A stretch of DNA of 64,000 nt, from positions 4,608,001 to 4,672,000 of the forward strand of contig OZ244207.1 in assembly GCA_965216875.1 (NCBI GenBank). The letters are read 5' to 3'. How positions within the stretch are numbered: position 1 is the stretch's first letter; every line of letters starts with the position of its first letter. Both the position numbers and the translations under genes were made by a program. This document shows positions 53,155 through 64,000 of this stretch, one piece after another. Below the pieces are notes generated by a model. The model saw nothing but the letters and a program-made list of their open reading frames with translations, had not been told where the DNA came from and made no database searches. The stretch is from Rubripirellula sp. Its GTDB lineage: Bacteria; Planctomycetota; Planctomycetia; Pirellulales; Pirellulaceae.

Positions 53155-54663
53155 CTAGACGGCGCCAACTTCCATCGAAGTGCCCATCGTTTGACCGGGA
53201 GCGGGCAGGTTGCTCGAACCGGTCAAGTAGATGTCGATCGCGCGGGCAGCTCCGCGACCTTCGTTGATCGCCCAAACGACAAGGCTTTGACCGCGACGGC
53301 AGTCACCCGCGGTGAACACACCTTCGATGTTGGTCGCGTAAACACCATGTTCGGCTTGGAAGTTACTGCGAGGATCGACGTCCAATTGCAATACATCGGC
53401 AACGTACTGCTCAGGACCGAGGAAACCCATCGCCAGCAAGATCAACTGCGCGGGCCATTCCTTTTCGCTACCTTCGACTTCGGCCATTTCCCAACCGCCG
53501 TCGTCGTTCTTGGTCCATTTCACCTCGACCGTTTTGATGCCACGAAGATTGCCATCGTCGTCGGTCAAGAACCCTTTCGAGAGGATCTGGTACTCGCGAG
53601 GATCGCGTCCAAACTTGGCCTCGGCTTCTTCGTGACCGTAGTCGACGCGGAAGATACGCGGCCATTCTGGCCAAGGGTTATCTTCGGCGCGATCTTCTGG
53701 CGGTTTGGGCAGCAATTCAAAGTTCACCATGCTGCGGCAGCCGTCACGGATACTGGTTCCGATACAGTCGGTTCCGGTATCACCACCACCGATGACGATC
53801 ACGTCTTTGCCCTCAGCACTGATGAAATCGTTGCCGAGAGAATCGCCGTGGACCACTTGTTTGGTATGGGCGGTCAGGAATTCCATCGCAAAGTGAACGC
53901 CTTTAGCATCGCGATTTGGAATCGGCAAATCACGAGGCTTGGTCGCACCACAAGCGAGTAGCACGGCGTCGTTGTCTTCGTGAAGCTGTTTCGGGTCAAC
54001 GTTTTGCCCGACGTTGGCGCCAGTCACAAACTTGATCCCTTCGGCTTCCATCTTGTCCAAACGACGTTGCAGCACGTCCTTGCCAAGTTTCATGTTTGGA
54101 ATGCCGTACTGCAGCAAGCCACCGATACGATCTTCGCGTTCGTAAACGGTGACTTCGTGACCCGCCTGGTTGAGCTGATCCGCAGCGGCCAATCCGGCCG
54201 GACCACTACCGATCACAGCGACCTTTTTGCCGCTGCGCGTTTCTGGCGGATCAGGTTGAATCCAACCTTCGGCCCACGCGCGGTCGATGATCGCGTTTTC
54301 GATGTTCTTGATCGTCACTGGTGGGTTATTGATGCCAAGCACGCACGAACCTTCGCACGGGGCAGGGCAGACACGACCGGTGAACTCAGGAAAGTTGTTG
54401 GTCTTGTGCAAACGCTCGTTGGCTTCTTTCCAACGATTGTTGTAGACCAAGTCGTTCCATTCGGGGATCAAGTTGTCGATCGGGCAACCTGTTCCCGACT
54501 GACAGAACGGAACACCACAATCCATGCATCGAGCGCCCTGCTGTTGCAGTTGTTCGACGCGAGGCTCGGTGTAGATCTCGTCGTAATCGTTGATACGGAC
54601 GACCGGCAGACGCCATGGCACTTTCTTGCGATCAAACTCTTTAAAACCGGTTGGCTTTCCCAT
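53155..54663 (-). CDS. gltD: Glutamate synthase small subunit
   Basis: [55 protein letters not shown]. Confidence 0.97.
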
Positions 54664-54726
54664 CGCTCGTTACTCTCAAAAAGACTCTTCGTTGTATTCG
54701 GTTGTTCGGTGGACTTGGATGATTGA

Positions 54727-57700
54727 CTAGGCGGTTGCCGACTCTTCCTGACGTTTCATTTCTTCCAAAACGCGTTTGAAGTCGGTTGGCATCACCTTGA
54801 CGCATTGGGCCAGGAAGCCGTCCCAATCATCAAGCACTTGCTGGGCAACAACGCTGCCGGTGTACTGCTGATGACGGCGAACCATCTCCTTGACGTCCTC
54901 TTCTTCCTCGGACGTTTCGATCTTTTCCAAAGCGACCGTTGCAAGGTTGCAGTTCAAATTAAAATCGCCGTCACGATCCCAGATGTAGGCGATCCCGCCC
55001 GACATCCCAGCGGCAAAGTTACGCCCAGTGGCTCCCAGGCAAACCATGCGGCCACCGGTCATGTATTCACAACCATGGTCACCAACGCCTTCGACCACGG
55101 TCCGTGCACCACTGTTGCGAACACAGAAACGTTCGGCCGCACGACCGCGGAAGTAAGCCTCGCCACCCGTCGCTCCGTAAAGGCAAACGTTACCGATCAG
55201 AATGTTGTCTTCGGCCGTGAAGCTACTTTCACGTGGCGGGAAGACAACCAATCGACCGCCGCTGAGGCCTTTGCCGACATAGTCGTTCGCGTCGCCTTCG
55301 AGTTCGATTGTCACGCCGTGCGAAAGGAACGCACCAAGACTTTGTCCTGCCGAGCCGGTCAGTTCGATGCGGACGGTGTCCTCTGGCAGCCCCTTTTGCC
55401 CGTAACGTTTTGCAATCTCGTTGCTAAGAATCGTGCCGACGGTGCGGTTGATGTTCACGATCGGTGATTGGATCGTGACCGGCTCACCCCGCTCGAGCGC
55501 CGGTGCGGCTGCTTCGACCAACTTGGTCAAGTCGAGCGACTTTTCCAAACCGTGATCTTGTGCTTGTGTGCAGATCACGTCGACGTCGTCGTGTGGTTTG
55601 TTGGCAGGCATCAACACCGAAGTCAAATCCAAGCCGTCTGCTTTCCAGTGCTTGATCGCCGCATCGGTTTCGAGCACTTCGCTGTGACCGACCATCTCGT
55701 CGATCGACTTGAAGCCAAGTTTGGCCATCAAACGACGAGCTTCCTCGGCAACCATGAACAAGTAATTGACAACGTGTTCTGGCTTGCCGGTGAATTTCTT
55801 ACGCAGGTCGGGGTCTTGAGTCGCGATTCCGACAGGGCAAGTGTTCAAGTGACACTTCCGCATCATGATGCAGCCCATCGTGATCAGCGGAGCGGTTGAG
55901 AAACCGAATTCTTCGGCACCCAACAATGCCGCAACCACGACGTCGCGACCCGTTTTCAATCCACCGTCAGTTTGCAGGACGACTCGGCTTCGCAGGTCGT
56001 TAAGCACGAGAACTTGGTGCGTTTCAGCGATCCCAAGTTCCCAAGGCAGACCCGCGTGTTTGATGCTCGTCAACGGCGAAGCACCCGTTCCGCCGGTGTC
56101 ACCCGAAATCAGGATGTGATCGGCGTGTGCTTTGGCAACACCGGAGGCGATCACACCGACGCCCACTTCACTGACCAACTTGACGCTAATCCGCGAGGCG
56201 CGGTTGGCGTTCTTCAAGTCGTGAATCAGTTGCGCAAGGTCTTCGATCGAATAAATGTCGTGGTGAGGCGGAGGACTGATCAGACCGACCCCCGGCGTGC
56301 TGTAACGAATTCGGGCGATGTTCTTATCGACCTTCTTGCCTGGCAGTTCACCACCTTCGCCTGGCTTGGCACCCTGCGAGATCTTGATTTGGATCTCATC
56401 TGCGTTGGTCAAGTATTCGATCGTGACACCAAAGCGTCCCGACGCAACTTGCTTGATGGCCGAACGCTTGGAATCGCCGTTCTCGAGCGGCTGGAAACGA
56501 ATGGGGTCTTCACCACCCTCGCCGGTGTTGCTTTTGCCACCCAAACGATTCATCGCGATCGCGAGCGACTCGTGCGATTCGGCACTGATGCTGCCGAAAC
56601 TCATCGCACCGGTACAGAACCGCTTCACGATTTCTTTGGCTGGTTCGACTTCGTCGAGTGCAATCGACTTGCGAACGTCTTCTTTGAAGCCAAGCAGACC
56701 ACGCAGCGTGCAACGCGAACGATTGTCAGCGTTGATGGTGTGGGCAAACTTCCAGTAAGCGTCTTCGTTGTTGTTTCGAGCAGCAAGCTGCAGATTCGAA
56801 ATCGCTTGTGGCGACCAAGCGTGCTTTTCGCCTTCGGCTCGCCAGTGGAATTCGCCCATATTGGGCAACTGAGGCAACTGGTCGTCGACGCGTTCGGGGA
56901 AACCGAGTGCATGACGACGCAGCGTTTCTTCGGCGATCACGTCGAACGACACACCTTGAATGCGGCTCGCCGTACCCACAAAACACTTGTCGATCACTTC
57001 ATCCTTCAAGCCAAGTGCTTCAAAGATTTGGGCGCCCTTGTAACTTTGCAGCGTCGAGATGCCCATCTTGGCCATCACCTTCAGCATGCCCTTGGCGACG
57101 CCTTTGCGATAAGCGGCGACAACCTTGTCATCATCAAGCGATGGATCCATCAAGCCGTCACGGCGAGCCTGCCAGAGTGCTTCGAAGGCAAGGTAGGGGT
57201 TGATTGCGTCCGCACCGTAGCCGATCAACAAACAGTGGTGATGCACTTCGCGAGCTTCGCCCGACTCGACGACCAATCCGATTCGCGTTCGCTTGGCTTG
57301 TTTGACCAAGTGATGGTGGACGGCACCAACGGCTAGCAGCGAGCTGACCGGAATTCGATCCTGCGAAACGGCGCGGTCCGTTAGCACAACAAGCTGGATG
57401 CCTTCGTCGGCGGCCGCTTCCGCTTCTTGAGCGATACGGTCGAGCGTCTTTTGGAGGCCCGCTTTGCCTTCGCTGCGATCGAACGTGATGTCGATCACAC
57501 GGCTATGCCAACCTTCGTAGTTGATGTGTTTGAGCGCCGCGATTTCTTCGTTGGTCAAGATGGGGTGATCGACCAACAAGCGATGGCAATGCTCTGGGGT
57601 CGCGTCGAGCAAGTTTTGCTCGGGACCGATGTAGCATTCCAACGACATGATCACTTCTTCGCGAATCGAATCGATCGAAGGGTTCGTGACCTGGGCGAAG

Positions 57701-59349
57701 AGTTGCTTGAAGTAGTCGTAGATCATGCGCGGCTTGTCGCTCAAACAAGCGATTGCGCTGTCGTTGCCCATCGAACCGACGGGATCACGAAGCTGCTCGA
57801 CCAGCGGACGAAGCATGAAGTTCATCGTCTCGGATGAATACCCGAACGACTGCATGCGTGGCAAAAGGGTGTCGCTATCGAAGCCATGGGGTTCGGTTTC
57901 GGGATGCAAATCGCTCAAACGAATCCGCTGTTCACGCAGCCATTTGCCGTACGGCATTGCACGAGCAAAATCACTCTTGAGTTCTTCGTCAGGGATCATG
58001 CGTCCCTGTTCGAAGTCGACCAGGAACATCTTGCCTGGTTGCAAACGACCTTTCGCCTTGACGATTGCTGGATCGACCGGCAACACACCCACTTCGCTGG
58101 CCATGATCACGCGATCATCGTGTGTGATGTAGTAGCGGCTTGGACGCAAACCGTTTCGGTCGAGCGTCGCACCGATGTACTTTCCGTCGGTAAAGGCGAT
58201 CGACGCAGGACCGTCCCAAGGTTCCATCATGCACGAGAAGTATTCATAGAAAGCACGCTTCTCTTCGGGCATCGTTTCGTGCTTTTGCCATGCTTCGGGG
58301 ACCATCATCATGATCGCTTCTTGAAGCGTTCGGCCGGTCATCAACATGAACTCAAGCACGTTGTCGAACGTTCCCGAGTCACTGCAATGTGGCTCGATGA
58401 CGGGGAAGAGCTTTTGCAGCTCGTCGCCGTAGATGTCGCTTGCGGCCGATCCTTCACGAGCCCGCATCCAGTTGCTGTTACCACGCAGCGTGTTGATTTC
58501 GCCGTTATGGCTCATGAAACGCAGCGGTTGAGCGCGGTCCCAACTGGGGAAGGTGTTGGTCGAGAAACGACTGTGCACCATCGCCAAGTGTGTTTCGTAG
58601 TCTTCGTCACGAAGGTCAGGGAAGTACGGCAACACCTGCTGCGGTGTCAGCATCCCTTTGTAGATGATCACTTTGGTGCTGAGCGAACAGATGTAGAACA
58701 TCAACGCTTGCTTGAGTGTTTCGCTACCACGCAGGGCATGACTTGCCTGCTTGTGGATCATATACAGCTTGCGTTCGAACTGTTCCGAATCGAGTCCATC
58801 GGCAGCGCTGACGAACAACTGTTCGATCACAGGTTCGCTGTTGCGCGCCGTCGGGCCAACGTCGGCAAGATCCGTTTCTTGCGGGACGTCGCGCCATCCG
58901 AGGTGGTTTTGTCCTGCGTCGGCAACCAGCTTTTCGATCGACTCTTTGCAGAACGCACGCTCATCGGCATCGCGGGGCAAAAAGACCAGACCGGCGGCAA
59001 ACCGGCCTGGTTCAGGCAAGTCGACACCCAAGTCTTGCTTGGCGACCTTGGCAAGGAACTTGTGGGGAAGCCCGGTCATGATGCCCGAGCCGTCACCGGT
59101 GTTCGGTTCACAGCCGCATGCGCCGCGGTGATCCATCGCTTGCAGGATCGTGTCGGCATCGAGCACGTTTTGGTGACTCGGCTCGCCCTTGATGTGTGCG
59201 ATGAAGCCAACACCACATGCGTCTTTTTCCTGATTCGGGTCGTAGAGACCCTGTGCAGGAGGCAGGTGGAAAAGAGGTTCGTTGTTGTGTTCGTTCTTGT
59301 CTGTCATAACCATCTCGTCATTGCTTGCCAGCGATTGGCTGTTGAGCAC
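54727..59349 (-). CDS. gltB: Glutamate synthase large subunit
   Basis: DACGVGF, HSRFSTNT, HNGEINT, GAKPGEGG, CHLNTCPVG, GXGXG domain. Start may be the ATG at 59307. Confidence 0.98.
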   Translation of the reverse strand: MLNSQSLASNDEMVMTDKNEHNNEPLFHLPPAQGLYDPNQEKDACGVGFIAHIKGEPSHQNVLDADTILQAMDHRGACGCEPNTGDGSGIMTGLPHKFLAKVAKQDLGVDLPEPGRFAAGLVFLPRDADERAFCKESIEKLVADAGQNHLGWRDVPQETDLADVGPTARNSEPVIEQLFVSAADGLDSEQFERKLYMIHKQASHALRGSETLKQALMFYICSLSTKVIIYKGMLTPQQVLPYFPDLRDEDYETHLAMVHSRFSTNTFPSWDRAQPLRFMSHNGEINTLRGNSNWMRAREGSAASDIYGDELQKLFPVIEPHCSDSGTFDNVLEFMLMTGRTLQEAIMMMVPEAWQKHETMPEEKRAFYEYFSCMMEPWDGPASIAFTDGKYIGATLDRNGLRPSRYYITHDDRVIMASEVGVLPVDPAIVKAKGRLQPGKMFLVDFEQGRMIPDEELKSDFARAMPYGKWLREQRIRLSDLHPETEPHGFDSDTLLPRMQSFGYSSETMNFMLRPLVEQLRDPVGSMGNDSAIACLSDKPRMIYDYFKQLFAQVTNPSIDSIREEVIMSLECYIGPEQNLLDATPEHCHRLLVDHPILTNEEIAALKHINYEGWHSRVIDITFDRSEGKAGLQKTLDRIAQEAEAAADEGIQLVVLTDRAVSQDRIPVSSLLAVGAVHHHLVKQAKRTRIGLVVESGEAREVHHHCLLIGYGADAINPYLAFEALWQARRDGLMDPSLDDDKVVAAYRKGVAKGMLKVMAKMGISTLQSYKGAQIFEALGLKDEVIDKCFVGTASRIQGVSFDVIAEETLRRHALGFPERVDDQLPQLPNMGEFHWRAEGEKHAWSPQAISNLQLAARNNNEDAYWKFAHTINADNRSRCTLRGLLGFKEDVRKSIALDEVEPAKEIVKRFCTGAMSFGSISAESHESLAIAMNRLGGKSNTGEGGEDPIRFQPLENGDSKRSAIKQVASGRFGVTIEYLTNADEIQIKISQGAKPGEGGELPGKKVDKNIARIRYSTPGVGLISPPPHHDIYSIEDLAQLIHDLKNANRASRISVKLVSEVGVGVIASGVAKAHADHILISGDTGGTGASPLTSIKHAGLPWELGIAETHQVLVLNDLRSRVVLQTDGGLKTGRDVVVAALLGAEEFGFSTAPLITMGCIMMRKCHLNTCPVGIATQDPDLRKKFTGKPEHVVNYLFMVAEEARRLMAKLGFKSIDEMVGHSEVLETDAAIKHWKADGLDLTSVLMPANKPHDDVDVICTQAQDHGLEKSLDLTKLVEAAAPALERGEPVTIQSPIVNINRTVGTILSNEIAKRYGQKGLPEDTVRIELTGSAGQSLGAFLSHGVTIELEGDANDYVGKGLSGGRLVVFPPRESSFTAEDNILIGNVCLYGATGGEAYFRGRAAERFCVRNSGARTVVEGVGDHGCEYMTGGRMVCLGATGRNFAAGMSGGIAYIWDRDGDFNLNCNLATVALEKIETSEEEEDVKEMVRRHQQYTGSVVAQQVLDDWDGFLAQCVKVMPTDFKRVLEEMKRQEESATA

Positions 59350-59404
59350 CGCGAAATCGGAAAGCGAGCACCATTGCGACCGAAGCCAGCTGTGCTCGGC
59401 TCAC

Positions 59405-60382
59405 CTACGCGACAACCGAAGTCGCACTTCGACTGTCTATCGCGGAACCGTCCACGGCAGGATTTCCCCCGCTGCCGGATTTACTTCGTTTTCCCGAGTC
59501 GAGCGGACGTCCCAAGAGAAGCGAGCCGAACTCATTGGCAGCTCGACTGAGACGTCCTGATCGTCGGAAGATAATGCCCAGAGGTCGCGTCATGCGTAGC
59601 TCTCGACATGCGACGACTCGCAGTGAGCCGTCAGCGGTTTCGCGGCGAACCGCCGCTTCAGGTACGATCCCAATGCCACGACTGGCCTGGATCGCGCGAA
59701 CCATGGAATCTGCGTTATCAAATTCCATGCGAACGTTAACGTTGACGCCAGCCTTTGCCAAACCTTGATCCACCTCTTGGCGAAGTGGCAACTCAGGCGA
59801 AAAGCCGACCATTTCCATCCCCGTCAATTGCGACGGAGACACTTCGTTCTCGGTTGCCAACCGATGATTGGCCGAACATACGATCCGCATCGGTTCGTTT
59901 TGCCAATGAACGAATTGAAGTTGTTTTGTGCTCTTGGGGAAGCTGACCAAACCAAAGTCCACTTCACCTTCGCTGGTCATTTCGACGACACGCTGACTCG
60001 AACCAAAGTCCATCTTCACATCGACTTCGGGATGCAACCGCGCGAAGGCGTCACACGCCTCAGGCATGTAACTGAGACCAACCGAATAGATGGTGCCAAT
60101 GGAGATGCGACCACTCAGTCGCTTGCTGATGCTGCGGACCTCTTGCTCCAATCGGTCGTAACTTCGCAGCACTCCGCGGAGACCACGGAAGTAGGTCTTG
60201 CCAGCAGTAGTCAGAATAAGAGGTCGCTTCGAACGATTGATCAGTTCAACACCGAGCGACTCTTCAAGCTGTTGCATCGCCTGACTGACGGCGCTCTGAG
60301 TCAATTGATGAACGGCCGCAGCTTTAGAAAAGCTACGCTGTTCGGCAACGGTGCAAAAGATCTCGAGCGTTCGTAGGTGCAA
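59405..60382 (-). CDS. LysR-family transcriptional regulator
   Basis: SFSKAA, TQSAVSQ, LEESLGVELINR, LTTAG; substrate-binding domain follows. Confidence 0.93.
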   Translation of the reverse strand: MHLRTLEIFCTVAEQRSFSKAAAVHQLTQSAVSQAMQQLEESLGVELINRSKRPLILTTAGKTYFRGLRGVLRSYDRLEQEVRSISKRLSGRISIGTIYSVGLSYMPEACDAFARLHPEVDVKMDFGSSQRVVEMTSEGEVDFGLVSFPKSTKQLQFVHWQNEPMRIVCSANHRLATENEVSPSQLTGMEMVGFSPELPLRQEVDQGLAKAGVNVNVRMEFDNADSMVRAIQASRGIGIVPEAAVRRETADGSLRVVACRELRMTRPLGIIFRRSGRLSRAANEFGSLLLGRPLDSGKRSKSGSGGNPAVDGSAIDSRSATSVVA

Positions 60383-60399
60383 CTGACGTTCTTGCTAAT

Positions 60400-60414
60400 A
60401 TAAGCCCTGCTAAT
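60400..60414. promoter_or_regulatory. LysR T-N11-A box (ATAAGC-CCT-GCTAAT)
   Basis: Near-dyad ~18 bp upstream of the LysR start, overlapping a TGCTAATA direct repeat. Confidence 0.5.
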
Positions 60415-60587
60415 AACAAAGGCATCCGCCTGCAATCAAGTTAATGCAAGGTAAGAACCTCGTCGCAGCCCGTCAAGCGTTTATTTCGCCCCCATTTCGC
60501 GGCAAAGCCCGCTCATTGGGGGTCTGTTTGGGTCAGCGAAAATGGGAGCGGAGGACGCGCCATCTCAATGACTCACCCCCCATGCGA

Positions 60588-60848
60588 TCACTCTGCCGCT
60601 TTGCCAAACCTTTTCGGCAGCGTAAAGGCGTAGATGATCACCACAGCTCCGACGGCGGTGATGACCCAGGGAAACCACTCTTTCGGCTTCCATACCTTCG
60701 TAGCGGGGGACGGGGTTCCCGTAGGATTCACGAAAGAAGATGCTTCGGATTCCGAAGCTGCGTACAAATTGGCGCTATCGATGACCATGCTTTCGAGGCC
60801 AACGATGATCGCCATCACCCCAAGGGCGAGAAAGAGAGAGCGCCACAT
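60588..60848 (-). CDS. Small two-TM membrane protein
   Basis: MWRSLFLALGVMAIIVG...PKEWFPWVITAVGAVVIIY. Confidence 0.7.
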   Translation of the reverse strand: MWRSLFLALGVMAIIVGLESMVIDSANLYAASESEASSFVNPTGTPSPATKVWKPKEWFPWVITAVGAVVIIYAFTLPKRFGKAAE

Positions 60849-60994
60849 TGGATTGCTTCCCGACAAGTGAGAGGAAAGGGACTCATCAAGAGGGATCGTC
60901 AAACACATCGGCGAACCCTGAGCCGATCAGCTTGCGGCGGCATGTCCGTCAGAAACGGAACGACCGGTGCAACGCTGGGTCGAGGGCCCATTCC

Positions 60995-61041
60995 GTAGCT
61001 ACCTTCGCCAACAGCCCGTAGCTACCTTCGCCAGAAGGTGG
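60995..61041 (+). repeat. REP family E (truncated plus full copy)
   Basis: GTAGCTACCTTCGCCA twice in tandem. Confidence 0.8.
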
Positions 61042-61101
61042 GACCTTGGTTCAGCCGCTCATCAACACCCCAACACCTGGTGATCGCTGCGACGGCAGGT
61101 G

Positions 61102-61767
61102 CTACGTGACCTTACCGTCGCGGACTTCGACGACGCGTTGGGCCCGCTCGGCCACTTCGTGACTGTGAGTGATCACCACCAGCGTCATGTTCTGCTGGGC
61201 GTGAAGCGATCCGAACAGATTCAGGATCTCCTCGCCGGTGGCACTATCAAGGTTTCCCGTCGGCTCATCCGCCAACAGCACCTGCGGCTCATTGGCCAAC
61301 GAGCGCGCAATGGCGACCCGTTGCCTCTCACCCACCGACAATTTGTTGGGCAGATGATCGGCGCGGTGCGACATACCAACGATCTCGAGCAATTCGCTTG
61401 CACGTGCTTTGCGCTGTGTCGCCGAGCGTTCGGTTTCGAACATCGGCATTTGAATGTTTTCGATCGCCGTCAACGTCGGCAACAGATAGAACGACTGAAA
61501 GACGTAACCAATGTGCTGTGATCGCAATTGGTCGAGCGCCTTTCCTTGCATCAACGGTTGGCCATCAAAGAGAACACGGCCTTGGGTTGGTTGATCAAGA
61601 CCACCGAGGATGTTCAGCAAGGTCGATTTCCCACTGCCACTTGGCCCAACAATCGCAACGTATTCACCACGTCCGATGGAGATGGAAACATCATCAAGTG
61701 CGAGCACATCGCCATCAACAAAGCGGCGAGAAACGTTTTCGGCAACGATGACGGGTGACACAGACAT
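61102..61767 (-). CDS. ABC ATP-binding protein (LolD/MacB-like)
   Basis: [35 protein letters not shown]. Confidence 0.93.
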
Positions 61768-62172
61768 AATGCGACAAAGGGAAAGGAGGCAAAAAGCTGG
61801 CGGGCAAAAAAAGGGTGCTGATCGGATCTAGGGACAGGAAGTTAAGCGGTCATCCCTCATTTCGATGCCCTCCATTTTTTTAACGATCGACTTACTACGA
61901 ATTCGGGCCATGGCTCCTCTTATTGCCCCCATGTTTCTGTCCAATTCAAACGCGCGTGGTGCTTTGACCTTCTTAGGCTTTGACAGTGGACCAAATGGTT
62001 CAAGTCGTCGACACCACCCCTTGTCCATTCTCGCGAGACAGCAGACATCGGTTTAGACGACATTCGCCCACTTCGTCGGCCATCATCCCCCCCGAAGGTT
62101 GCTTCGCGCTTCGCGGTGCATCACAATTCGATTTACTCATCTGTGACCGATCGATGCTGGGGGACCACCGTT

Positions 62173-63618
62173 GTGGCAAAAGTCAAAGCTTGGAAGTATC
62201 ACGACTCGAGTCAACCATCCTTTCCTGACGACTTCGAGATTGCTCAGAAAGCGGTCCTGCAAGTCACGGACATCAAGACGAACAAAAACAAGTACTACGC
62301 CATCGAACTGCATGCCGCCGGTGGCAGCTTTCGGGTCTTCACCCACTACGGGCGAACCGACGACCTGGATACGAATCCTGAGAGCGGACAAAAGGAGTGT
62401 CGGTACGCCCTTTCGCTCGCGGAAGCTCAGGCGATCTACCAAACGATCTACAACCAAAAAACCTCCAAGAGCAAAGGGTACCAAGAGCTCGCCCTCGCCT
62501 CGAGCAACATCGGCTCACAGCAGGCTCGAGGCACAAGCAGCGGCGACGTTGACGACAAAACACTCGAAAAGCTCGCCGAAAAAGACAAAGCAAAAGGCAA
62601 GAAGGCGAAGAAGCCGAAGGCAAAGAAATCGTCGTTGCCAGCCAGCGTGCAGACCATCGTTCGCTACATGTACGACGAGGCCACCAACGCGCTCACGTCG
62701 ACCGTCCAGGCCAAGATCACGGCCAATGGAATTGAAACGCCGCTTGGCATCCTGACGATCGGCCAGATCGAAAAGGGAGAAGAAATCCTGACCGATGCCT
62801 ACGAGCTGTTCGGCAAGAAGCGAGCTCGTAACCGAGTGGAACGACTCGAGCAGTATTCAAGCGACTTTTACACCGCAATCCCGCATCGGTTTGGCCGCTC
62901 ACGAGCCGCAGCCGAAGCAGCAGTGATCAATTCACTTGCTGACTTTGAACAGAAACAAGAAACACTGCAGCTGATGAAGGACATGTTGCAGGTCAATGGC
63001 GAAGAAGGCAACGTTTTGTTCGACGCTGCCGTTGATAAAGAATACGAAGCGCTCGGCTGCGAGATTCAAACCGTTGACCCCAAGTCGGCGGAATACAAAG
63101 AGCTGAAACAGTACGTTGAAAAGAGCCAGATCAAGACAAAGACCATACGTGTCAAAAACGTCTTTACACTGCATCGCGAAGAAGAACGCACAGAGTTTCG
63201 AGAGAAACTGAAGAACCAACGCCAGCTTTTCCATGGATCACGAATCCAAAACTGGGTGGGGCTTTTGTCACGTGGGATTCTGATGCCCAAAATTGTGGTC
63301 AGCATGGGCGTCAATCGCACCGACGCCGGTTGGCTTGGTAACGGAATCTACTTTGGTGACGCCGCATGCACGAGCAACTTCTATACGACCCCCGGGAAAA
63401 AGAAAACTCGCTTGATGGCAGTTTGCAATGTCGCACTCGGCAAGGTCAAACAATTCCACAAAATCACTTATGGAATGGATGCACCTCCGAAAGGATACGA
63501 CAGCTGTCACGGCGTGCGACAACAAAAGGGCGTGCAGTCGCAATTCGCTGACGACGAGTTCGTCATTTACAACACCAACCAACAACACATGCAGTACTTG
63601 GTCGAATTCACAAGCTAA
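62173..63618 (+). CDS. PARP-family ADP-ribosyltransferase (WGR + regulatory + catalytic domains)
   Basis: GTG at 62173 after GGGGGA. WGR-like TNKNKYYAIEL...THYGR; regulatory TPLGILT...SSDFYTAIPH; catalytic LFHGSR, GNGIYFGD, CNVALG, YDSCHG, DDEFVIY. Confidence 0.92.
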   Translation: MAKVKAWKYHDSSQPSFPDDFEIAQKAVLQVTDIKTNKNKYYAIELHAAGGSFRVFTHYGRTDDLDTNPESGQKECRYALSLAEAQAIYQTIYNQKTSKSKGYQELALASSNIGSQQARGTSSGDVDDKTLEKLAEKDKAKGKKAKKPKAKKSSLPASVQTIVRYMYDEATNALTSTVQAKITANGIETPLGILTIGQIEKGEEILTDAYELFGKKRARNRVERLEQYSSDFYTAIPHRFGRSRAAAEAAVINSLADFEQKQETLQLMKDMLQVNGEEGNVLFDAAVDKEYEALGCEIQTVDPKSAEYKELKQYVEKSQIKTKTIRVKNVFTLHREEERTEFREKLKNQRQLFHGSRIQNWVGLLSRGILMPKIVVSMGVNRTDAGWLGNGIYFGDAACTSNFYTTPGKKKTRLMAVCNVALGKVKQFHKITYGMDAPPKGYDSCHGVRQQKGVQSQFADDEFVIYNTNQQHMQYLVEFTS

Positions 63619-63692
63619 TTCTCCGATCGTGTAACATGATTCCAGAAGCACTTGTTCGACGGCAAAGCCAGTGAACTTGAGGGGACAAACAA

Positions 63693-64000
63693 ATGCGTGT
63701 TCGCATCGTTTTGGTCGACATCAATAAGAAGATGATCAACGCTTGGCGTTCGACTTTCGAAGAGAATCCCGAAGTCGAAGTCCTCGAGGGCTCGATGCTT
63801 TCGCAGGAAGTCGACGCTTGGGTCTCGCCAACCAATTCGCGTGGTTCGATGGATGGCGGCCTTGATGCGGTCATCAAGAACGAACTGGGTGGCCAGATTG
63901 AGAACAAAGTTCAAGCAGCAATCAAACAACAACACAGCGGCTTGATGCCTGTTGGTCACGCCACCTGCGTTCCCTCAGGTCGCACAAGGCCCAAGTTCTT
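63693..64000 (+). CDS. Macrodomain protein (ADP-ribose binding/hydrolase), 3'-partial
   Basis: Hand translation from ATG 63693 (RBS GAGGGG): MRVRIVLVDINKKMINAW...EVDAWVSPTNSRGSMDGGLDAVI...MPVGHA...; no stop before the window end; not in the ORF track. Confidence 0.88.
   Translation, partial: MRVRIVLVDINKKMINAWRSTFEENPEVEVLEGSMLSQEVDAWVSPTNSRGSMDGGLDAVIKNELGGQIENKVQAAIKQQHSGLMPVGHATCVPSGRTRPKF

Follow-up and report, generated by a model that had tools for sequence, protein, structure and literature searches.

What system does a bacterial PARP gene belong to when a macrodomain gene stands directly behind it? The question is raised by the right-hand end of a 64,000-nt stretch of Rubripirellula sp. 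DNA (contig OZ244207.1, positions 4,608,001 to 4,672,000; hereafter the window), where an earlier note, made from the letters alone, had proposed a two-gene writer/eraser module for reversible ADP-ribosylation that might extend beyond the window. The pair and its conserved linkage stood, but the free-standing module did not: the two genes open a type XIII retron operon, and five further parts (HEAT/ARM, SWIM, RNA, reverse transcriptase [RT], and ADP-ribosylglycohydrolase [ARH]) do lie past the window end. The order is WGR-PARP, macrodomain, HEAT/ARM, SWIM, msr-msd RNA, and RT on one strand, with ARH convergent after RT. Positions beyond the window are given on locus L001 (G000:C1:4666001-4686000, G000 being the source genome itself), where window position equals L001 position plus 58000.

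62173..63618, + strand: PARP4-like ADP-ribosyltransferase, 481 residues (Pfam, PDB search, alignment of 45 homologues, structural model and Foldseek)
63693..64000, + strand: Ymx7-like macrodomain gene, whole gene at L001 5693-6415, 240 residues (Pfam, fold match, alignment)
L001 6468-8957, beyond the window, + strand: WGR-like/HEAT-ARM retron accessory protein, 829 residues (PADLOC)
L001 8954-10627, beyond the window, + strand: SWIM zinc-finger retron protein, 557 residues (PADLOC, motifs)
L001 10637-10897, beyond the window, + strand: retron msr-msd non-coding RNA (fold, covariation)
L001 10914-12308, beyond the window, + strand: retron RT, 464 residues (PADLOC, motifs)
L001 12334-13428, beyond the window, - strand: ARH of the DraG/Tri1/ARH family, 364 residues, convergent on RT (Pfam)

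The 481-residue PARP-like open reading frame (ORF) read earlier was confirmed at 62173-63618, with a GTG start behind a GGGGGA that resembles a ribosome-binding site. A longer in-frame start at 62116 is unlikely, as homologues start at the point equivalent to 62173 (consensus MAxVKAW). Past the PARP stop, a 74-bp spacer leads to the second ORF, which starts at 63693 behind its own ribosome-binding site, GAGGGG; it contains DAWVSPTNSRGSMDGGLD, carries the macrodomain signature as claimed, and was missing from the ORF track because it is open at the 3' window end. All four domains for which the earlier note had suggested profile searches matched in Pfam: WGR (5.9e-9), PARP_reg (3.5e-18), and PARP (1.4e-33), each above its cut-off, and Macro (1.5e-13, on the whole gene). 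Downstream, the SWIM start overlaps the HEAT stop by 4 nt, and the gap between SWIM and RT is 286 bp. A promoter and terminator scan performed at or below chance and found no + strand terminator between operon genes beyond a weak 5-bp site on the macrodomain start. Four RNA runs of the same label did not cover the operon and are uninformative on expression or co-transcription. We rejected a recent foreign island, there being no GC anomaly at the locus.

The core of this operon is a type XIII retron, retrons being RT-based systems that in many cases protect against phages. The 829-residue protein matched the PADLOC models WGR_XIII (8.5e-92) and HEAT-ARM_XIII (3.3e-64), with Pfam HEAT_2 below its cut-off. 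The SWIM protein matched SWIM_XIII at 4e-190, with CxC-x12-CxH at residue 525 and Dx7Dx4E at residue 140. RT_XIII was the best model for the RT (8.9e-167), which has AAHGF (region X) at 220, YADD at 341, and VTG at 389, and is the only RT that a search of the genome found. Type XIII retrons as described from Mx162, Mx65, Ne144, and Sa163 (PMC7736814) share these three proteins in the same order, with the msr-msd RNA before the RT; the difference here is the added PARP, macrodomain, and often ARH.

The SWIM-RT gap, for which Rfam gave no match, holds an RNA with an a1/a2 closing stem, a short msr hairpin, and a long, variable msd stem (-141.3 kcal/mol, z -10.6). Compensatory change was found in 33 of 44 predicted pairs across 38 copies, and covariation was 0.49 against 0.16 in shuffled alignments (above 500/500 shuffles) and at most 0.15 in slid controls. 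Our own RNA model detected it in 28/28 full loci, the 38 training sequences matching by construction. The G at L001 10679, after a1 and conserved in at least 90% of the 38 sequences, is a candidate branching G for production of multicopy single-stranded DNA (msDNA).

Some loci carry tandem msr-msd copies ahead of a single RT: four at L140:9533-10575 (G404:C3) and two each at L002:6826-7473 and L042:16678-17134. In these the msr is conserved and the msd stems differ. In L140, about 1.5 kb with an apparently hydrophobic ORF lies between the RNA array and the RT.

By sequence, this bacterial PARP is related to human vault PARP4. Its WGR domain (residues 26-105) is followed by a Lys-rich linker, a helical regulatory domain (153-271), and an ADP-ribosyltransferase (ART) domain with H354-Y393-E462. 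This triad and the WGR residues N37, K40, Y41, Y42, G60, and R61 are invariant in 45 homologues. Among solved structures in the PDB, the closest by sequence is human PARP4 (E 6e-53), ahead of PARP2 (8e-31) and PARP1 (2e-21), and the ART domain model fits human PARP4 with a root-mean-square deviation (rmsd) of 1.6 over 195 columns. The two proteins have in common the H-Y-E triad, the RTDxGxLGxGIY loop, and a tie to a non-coding RNA system. Human PARP4 additionally has BRCT, VIT, and vWA domains, whereas Pfam found none of these in the 481-residue PARP, only WGR, PARP_reg, and PARP.

The acceptor site points to the type of product. T400 and D460 correspond to T484 and D545 of PARP4, replacing K903 and Y986 of PARP1, and W387 stands where PARP4 has N471 and PARP1 has M890; equivalents of T400 and W387 were present in 113/113 homologues with a motif match (120 examined). 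Changes including T484, D545, and N471 are described as confining PARP4 to mono-ADP-ribosylation (PMC10711553). Because these PARP4-type changes occur with the catalytic H-Y-E kept, mono-ADP-ribosylation is the better inference: the enzyme is probably a mono-ADP-ribosyltransferase and not a polymerase. We rejected a PARP1/2-type poly(ADP-ribose) polymerase on the replacement of K903, M890, and Y986 by T400, W387, and D460. The PARPs of Herpetosiphon aurantiacus and Clostridioides difficile CD160, compared here by description only, share the WGR-containing layout and H-Y-E but are reported to make poly(ADP-ribose), reversed by PARG (PMC8120803), in contrast to the PARP4 acceptor site, Ymx7-like macrodomain, ARH, and retron operon found here.

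The family is sizeable, the best 120 of 857 matches all being at least 62% identical, and its place among eukaryotic PARPs was examined with trees from which 31 short rows had been dropped beforehand (90 and 43 of 193 rows used). In the tree of helical and ART domains, 40 rows (the family with animal VIT-PARP4, amoebozoan, and algal proteins) split from PARP3-like outgroups at 94/98; the outgroup of this Clade 5 tree has only two rows, both bacterial PARP3-like paralogues. In quick trees the bacterial sequences formed a single clade (SH-aLRT 99 and 95) near algal proteins; the careful finished tree settled neither such a clade nor its position. Clade 5 has been described from animals, Amoebozoa, and kin, with most bacterial PARPs described as Clade 1-like (PMC4245714).

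The macrodomain gene encodes a candidate eraser. Its model (predicted local distance difference test score 87) is nearest in fold to yeast Ymx7 (YMR087W, PDB 1NJR, titled ADP-ribose-1''-monophosphatase), with Z 19.6, rmsd 2.9, and 179 aligned residues, the next match having Z 16.3; the profile match to Ymx7 (E 3.6e-7) was tied with macroH2A (2.2e-7). The two share the SPxNS-G-GG-D motif at 26% identity, and N48, G55, G56, and D58 are invariant in 45 sequences. The protein here differs in having an acidic tail, and Ser105 where Ymx7 has a His in the aligned strand, presumably the catalytic residue. We infer that the macrodomain hydrolyses an ADP-ribose ester. An ADP-ribose-1''-monophosphatase cuts the ADP-ribose-phosphate ester, the bond by which ADP-ribose is attached to a phosphorylated nucleic-acid end. 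Because a Ymx7-type enzyme cleaves this ester, a DNA or RNA end is a plausible acceptor.

The C-terminal part of the macrodomain protein is a low-complexity linker rich in Pro, Ala, and Lys that ends in a conserved acidic DFDD tip. The tip was present in every examined copy that is linked to the retron or has the retron elsewhere in its genome. Four of the five genomes in which no retron was found have lost it (L022, L036, L041) or have it in degenerate form (L012), the fifth (L009) keeping it, and these four fall in three separate places in the PARP tree. To us, the Pro-rich linker and DFDD tip (L001:5693-6415, last 8 residues) recall the acidic tail of the bacterial single-stranded DNA-binding protein (SSB). 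Some retrons are triggered by phage SSBs.

The second candidate eraser, ARH (Pfam 3.8e-71; NCBIfam Tri1 and DraG below their own cut-offs), is present in 17/38 linked loci and 0/16 unlinked loci, in varying positions and from at least three sequence lineages; the 8.26-Mb source genome has 2 ARH genes. An in-frame RT-ARH fusion of about 780 residues was found in 6 protein clusters from NCBI, ENA, and Logan (L141:3850-6192, - strand; P0289-P0294), and the same fusion, with a frameshift, lies at L050:16924-19265. The ARH of our locus is 62-66% identical to the RT-fused ARH. Although a single event, this fusion links the removal of ADP-ribose directly to the retron.

Linkage was assessed from a PARP search of species genomes that gave 53 loci, 46-70% identical, in counts that include kin and hence are not independent. 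The planctomycete framing given earlier proved too narrow, the family occurring also in Myxococcota and Pseudomonadota besides Planctomycetota, while the neighbourhood survey suggested with it bore out the pairing: the macrodomain directly follows the PARP in 51/53 loci, one contig (L003) ending right after the macrodomain. PARP, macrodomain, and HEAT stand together in 37/53. All 28 of these 37 loci that extend far enough have SWIM, RNA, and RT, the other 9 stopping at a contig edge, and gene order and spacing are fixed across the three phyla. We searched 15 unlinked genomes whole: 10 have the same SWIM subclade elsewhere (52-60% identity), and in 9 of these HEAT, RNA, and RT accompany it. The macrodomain remains near the retron where the PARP has moved (L149, L142). 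Clustering of 54 loci gave no further widely conserved neighbour and no conserved repair gene. Tautonia sociabilis (L037) is a carrier available in culture.

Surveys from the SWIM side gave a similar picture. In the phylum of genome G402 (301 genomes), SWIM matched in 38 genomes and the PARP in 4, the same 4 in which SWIM is at least 55% identical; three of these were already among the 53 loci and one (G630) is new. The 34 other SWIM-matching genomes had no PARP match, nor did the rest of the 301 genomes with this query. In the phylum of the source genome (401 genomes), SWIM matched in 29, three at 58% or more; two of these three have PARP and macrodomain in the operon, and in the third the macrodomain is cut by a contig end and no PARP was found. 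Of 23 metagenome SWIM loci, 9 belong to the close subclade, two of which (L094, L097) have PARP and macrodomain, while in most others the upstream DNA is missing. Neither gene was present in ten distant loci whose upstream DNA is long. The close SWIMs form one clade (support 100), and the other type XIII subclades examined have no PARP. Their sister, L119, has neither PARP nor macrodomain nearby, and no close copy was found in its genome; L117, labelled 'no PARP' in the SWIM tree, comes from a genome in which the PARP operon is present as well. Some basic residues are conserved only in the PARP-linked subclade, namely R149-K150 in HEAT (RKLLSRRRS) and R265, R487, R488, K495, R507, and R509 in SWIM, with the limit that the sister L119 SWIM is truncated ahead of most of these SWIM positions. 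PARP and SWIM tree distances in 7 unlinked genomes correlated at rho 0.95, host kinship not being controlled.

Several side observations touch these proteins. An atlas search with HEAT residues 1-200 returned WGR/HEAT clusters with top scores of 0.89, a lead only. Three of the 4 system-bearing genomes in the phylum of G402 have extra PARP paralogues (L147:3380-4921, L148:3612-5270, L150, L151), one of them PARP3-like (E 4.5e-116 to human PARP3). At L015:5173-11437, the DNA immediately ahead of the PARP4-like gene and its retron contains genes for an NAD-dependent DNA ligase and a second WGR-PARP, and a 234-residue ORF.

The gene content and order, the co-occurrence, the intact catalytic motifs, and the structured RNA are established by sequence and comparison. 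That PARP and macrodomain are functionally linked to the retron is very probable. With modest confidence, we favor a type XIII retron subtype carrying a reversible mono-ADP-ribosylation switch that would be gated by msDNA or DNA ends and would serve phage defence. The RT would copy the msd stem into msDNA, kept in a complex with the RT, HEAT/ARM, and SWIM proteins; such retention of msDNA by retron proteins is established for retrons generally. The helical domain would hold the PARP off until WGR meets a DNA end or nick, provided either by msDNA exposed once a phage protein disturbs the complex or by phage DNA. The PARP would then add single ADP-ribose units to a protein or to a phosphorylated nucleic-acid end, which could arrest the cell, by NAD+ drain or target poisoning, or switch the SWIM protein on. 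The macrodomain and ARH would remove the mark and keep the system off or return it to that state, the macrodomain possibly being tethered to the retron via its DFDD tip. The type II-A retron Ec86/Eco1 is a retron with an NAD+-consuming effector. The patchy presence of the operon, which the earlier note had anticipated, would fit such a role, as in defence systems: close copies were found in 2/401 genomes of the source phylum, and none in 40 relatives, two of which are congeners with shared flanking genes.

A number of observations weigh against this defence switch. PARP-macrodomain pairs without a retron were found in 5/15 of the unlinked genomes (metagenome assemblies of unstated completeness, with distant SWIM relatives or none), and L090 (macrodomain-HEAT-SWIM) and L096 (SWIM, sharing the L090 downstream DNA) have no adjacent PARP, RNA, or RT; coupling of PARP and retron is therefore not obligatory. 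Genome G125, 92% complete, holds a close SWIM, and a PARP was not found in it. PARP and SWIM tree distances agree only moderately (rho 0.51 in 33 genomes, versus 0.87 for SWIM and RT, host kinship not being controlled). The RT-ARH fusions are one lineage (77-79% identity), hence one event. PARP-type enzymes are not known to form arginine-linked ADP-ribose, the linkage on which characterised DraG/Tri1 hydrolases act. These hydrolases are described in PMC8120803. Human PARP4 is reported not to be stimulated by its RNA (PMC10711553), and vertical inheritance, perhaps with domestication, has been suggested for type XIII retrons (PMC7736814).

That last suggestion favors the main rival, which we consider unlikely: a domesticated retron and PARP circuit that would act on chromosome breaks in DNA-damage or repair signalling, with msDNA as regulator or scaffold. 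The canonical WGR residues and PARP1/2-like three-domain layout would suit it, as would the lack of a GC anomaly and the phage and plasmid collections, in which we found no close PARP copy and only distant PARPs (below 33%). DNA ligase is moreover fused to close relatives of the PARP, a further point against the defence switch: P0122-P0126 (914-964 residues) have an N-terminal SWIM-like finger, read by eye, an ATP-dependent DNA ligase, WGR, and the same PARP4-like domain at 62-67% identity, two of them being named from Acidobacteria-group genomes. The ligase and second WGR-PARP upstream in L015 point the same way. What speaks against repair is the very patchy presence, close copies being found in 2/401 and 4/301 genomes and in none of the 40 relatives, together with the lack of any repair gene as a conserved neighbour among the 54 clustered loci. 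Tandem RNA copies with different msd stems would also better fit diversifying sensors.

Two other explanations keep the ADP-ribosylation genes apart from the retron mechanism. We regard it as quite unlikely that PARP and macrodomain form an independent toxin-antitoxin-like module in the style of DarTG, which would share a defence island with the retron but be mechanistically uncoupled from it. The PARP-macrodomain adjacency (51/53) is tighter than that of PARP and retron (37/53), 5 genomes that carry the pair yielded no retron of this subclade, and tree agreement is only moderate; however, order and spacing are fixed across three phyla, co-occurrence holds when the genes are unlinked (9/15), the macrodomain stays near the retron in L149 and L142, RT and ARH are fused in one lineage, and no other neighbour is widely conserved. 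DarTG, which is anti-phage, likewise combines a transferase with a macrodomain eraser, but the writer here is a full PARP, not DarT or NDT; membership was rejected, the PARP matching no PADLOC model and the macrodomain matching DarG only at 6.6e-4. At least as unlikely is counter-counter-defence, in which ARH, perhaps with the macrodomain, would shield the retron against ADP-ribosyltransferases of phages, the PARP having a role of its own. ARH is nearest the arginine-specific Tri1/DraG models (PMC8120803), is fused to the RT and not to the PARP, and is optional and recruited from several lineages. This account leaves the PARP, the most constant partner, unexplained, and the ARH-like antitoxin DarG3 is reported to serve a DarT transferase (PMC13069673), so that ARH-fold substrates may exceed arginine.

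In the literature searched, subscription papers being generally outside its reach, we found no description of a PARP4-like writer, Ymx7-like eraser, ARH, or RT-ARH fusion in a type XIII retron. The main text of PMC7736814 does not contain 'PARP', 'macro', or 'ADP-ribos', a statement that does not extend to its supplement, which may list such clusters. The 2026 SPIRE survey (PMC13712802), in its accessible text and supplements, does not contain 'PARP', and 0/6 'macro' places in its candidate table are type XIII. The targets and functions of full-length bacterial PARPs are listed as unknown in PMC8120803, and the role of PARP4 in vaults is called unclear in PMC4245714. One cloneable locus of about 9 kb makes three questions testable: what full-length bacterial PARPs do, what purpose type XIII retrons (the myxobacterial msDNA retrons among them) serve, and what the PARP4 lineage does. 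It offers a compact bacterial member of that lineage whose genetic circuit is defined and includes a non-coding RNA and two erasers. In the boldest reading, the PARP4-lineage enzyme would itself be the msDNA-gated immune effector of the retron, with macrodomain and ARH as built-in erasers; we hold this tentatively and think it rather doubtful. If true, it would give an anti-phage role to a full WGR-PARP and a function to type XIII retrons, and would be a counterpart in bacteria to, and possibly the origin of, the eukaryotic partnership between vault PARP4 and non-coding RNA; with tandem msd variants, a single RT would have several sensors.

The source genome has a second, divergent WGR-PARP gene at L115:6262-7995 (- strand; 577 residues, Pfam PARP 2.7e-20; G000:C1 about 214260-216800). 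Ahead of it on the same strand, L115:8052-8804 has no Pfam match and is presumably macrodomain-like, judged by eye from the motif. The immediate upstream neighbours of the PARP4-like gene in the window are ordinary: the stretch 53155-61767 (- strand) includes two genes that we take, from their translations, to encode the large and small subunits of glutamate synthase. A LysR regulator precedes these two genes, and an ABC ATPase lies at 61102-61767; all are transcribed away from the PARP.

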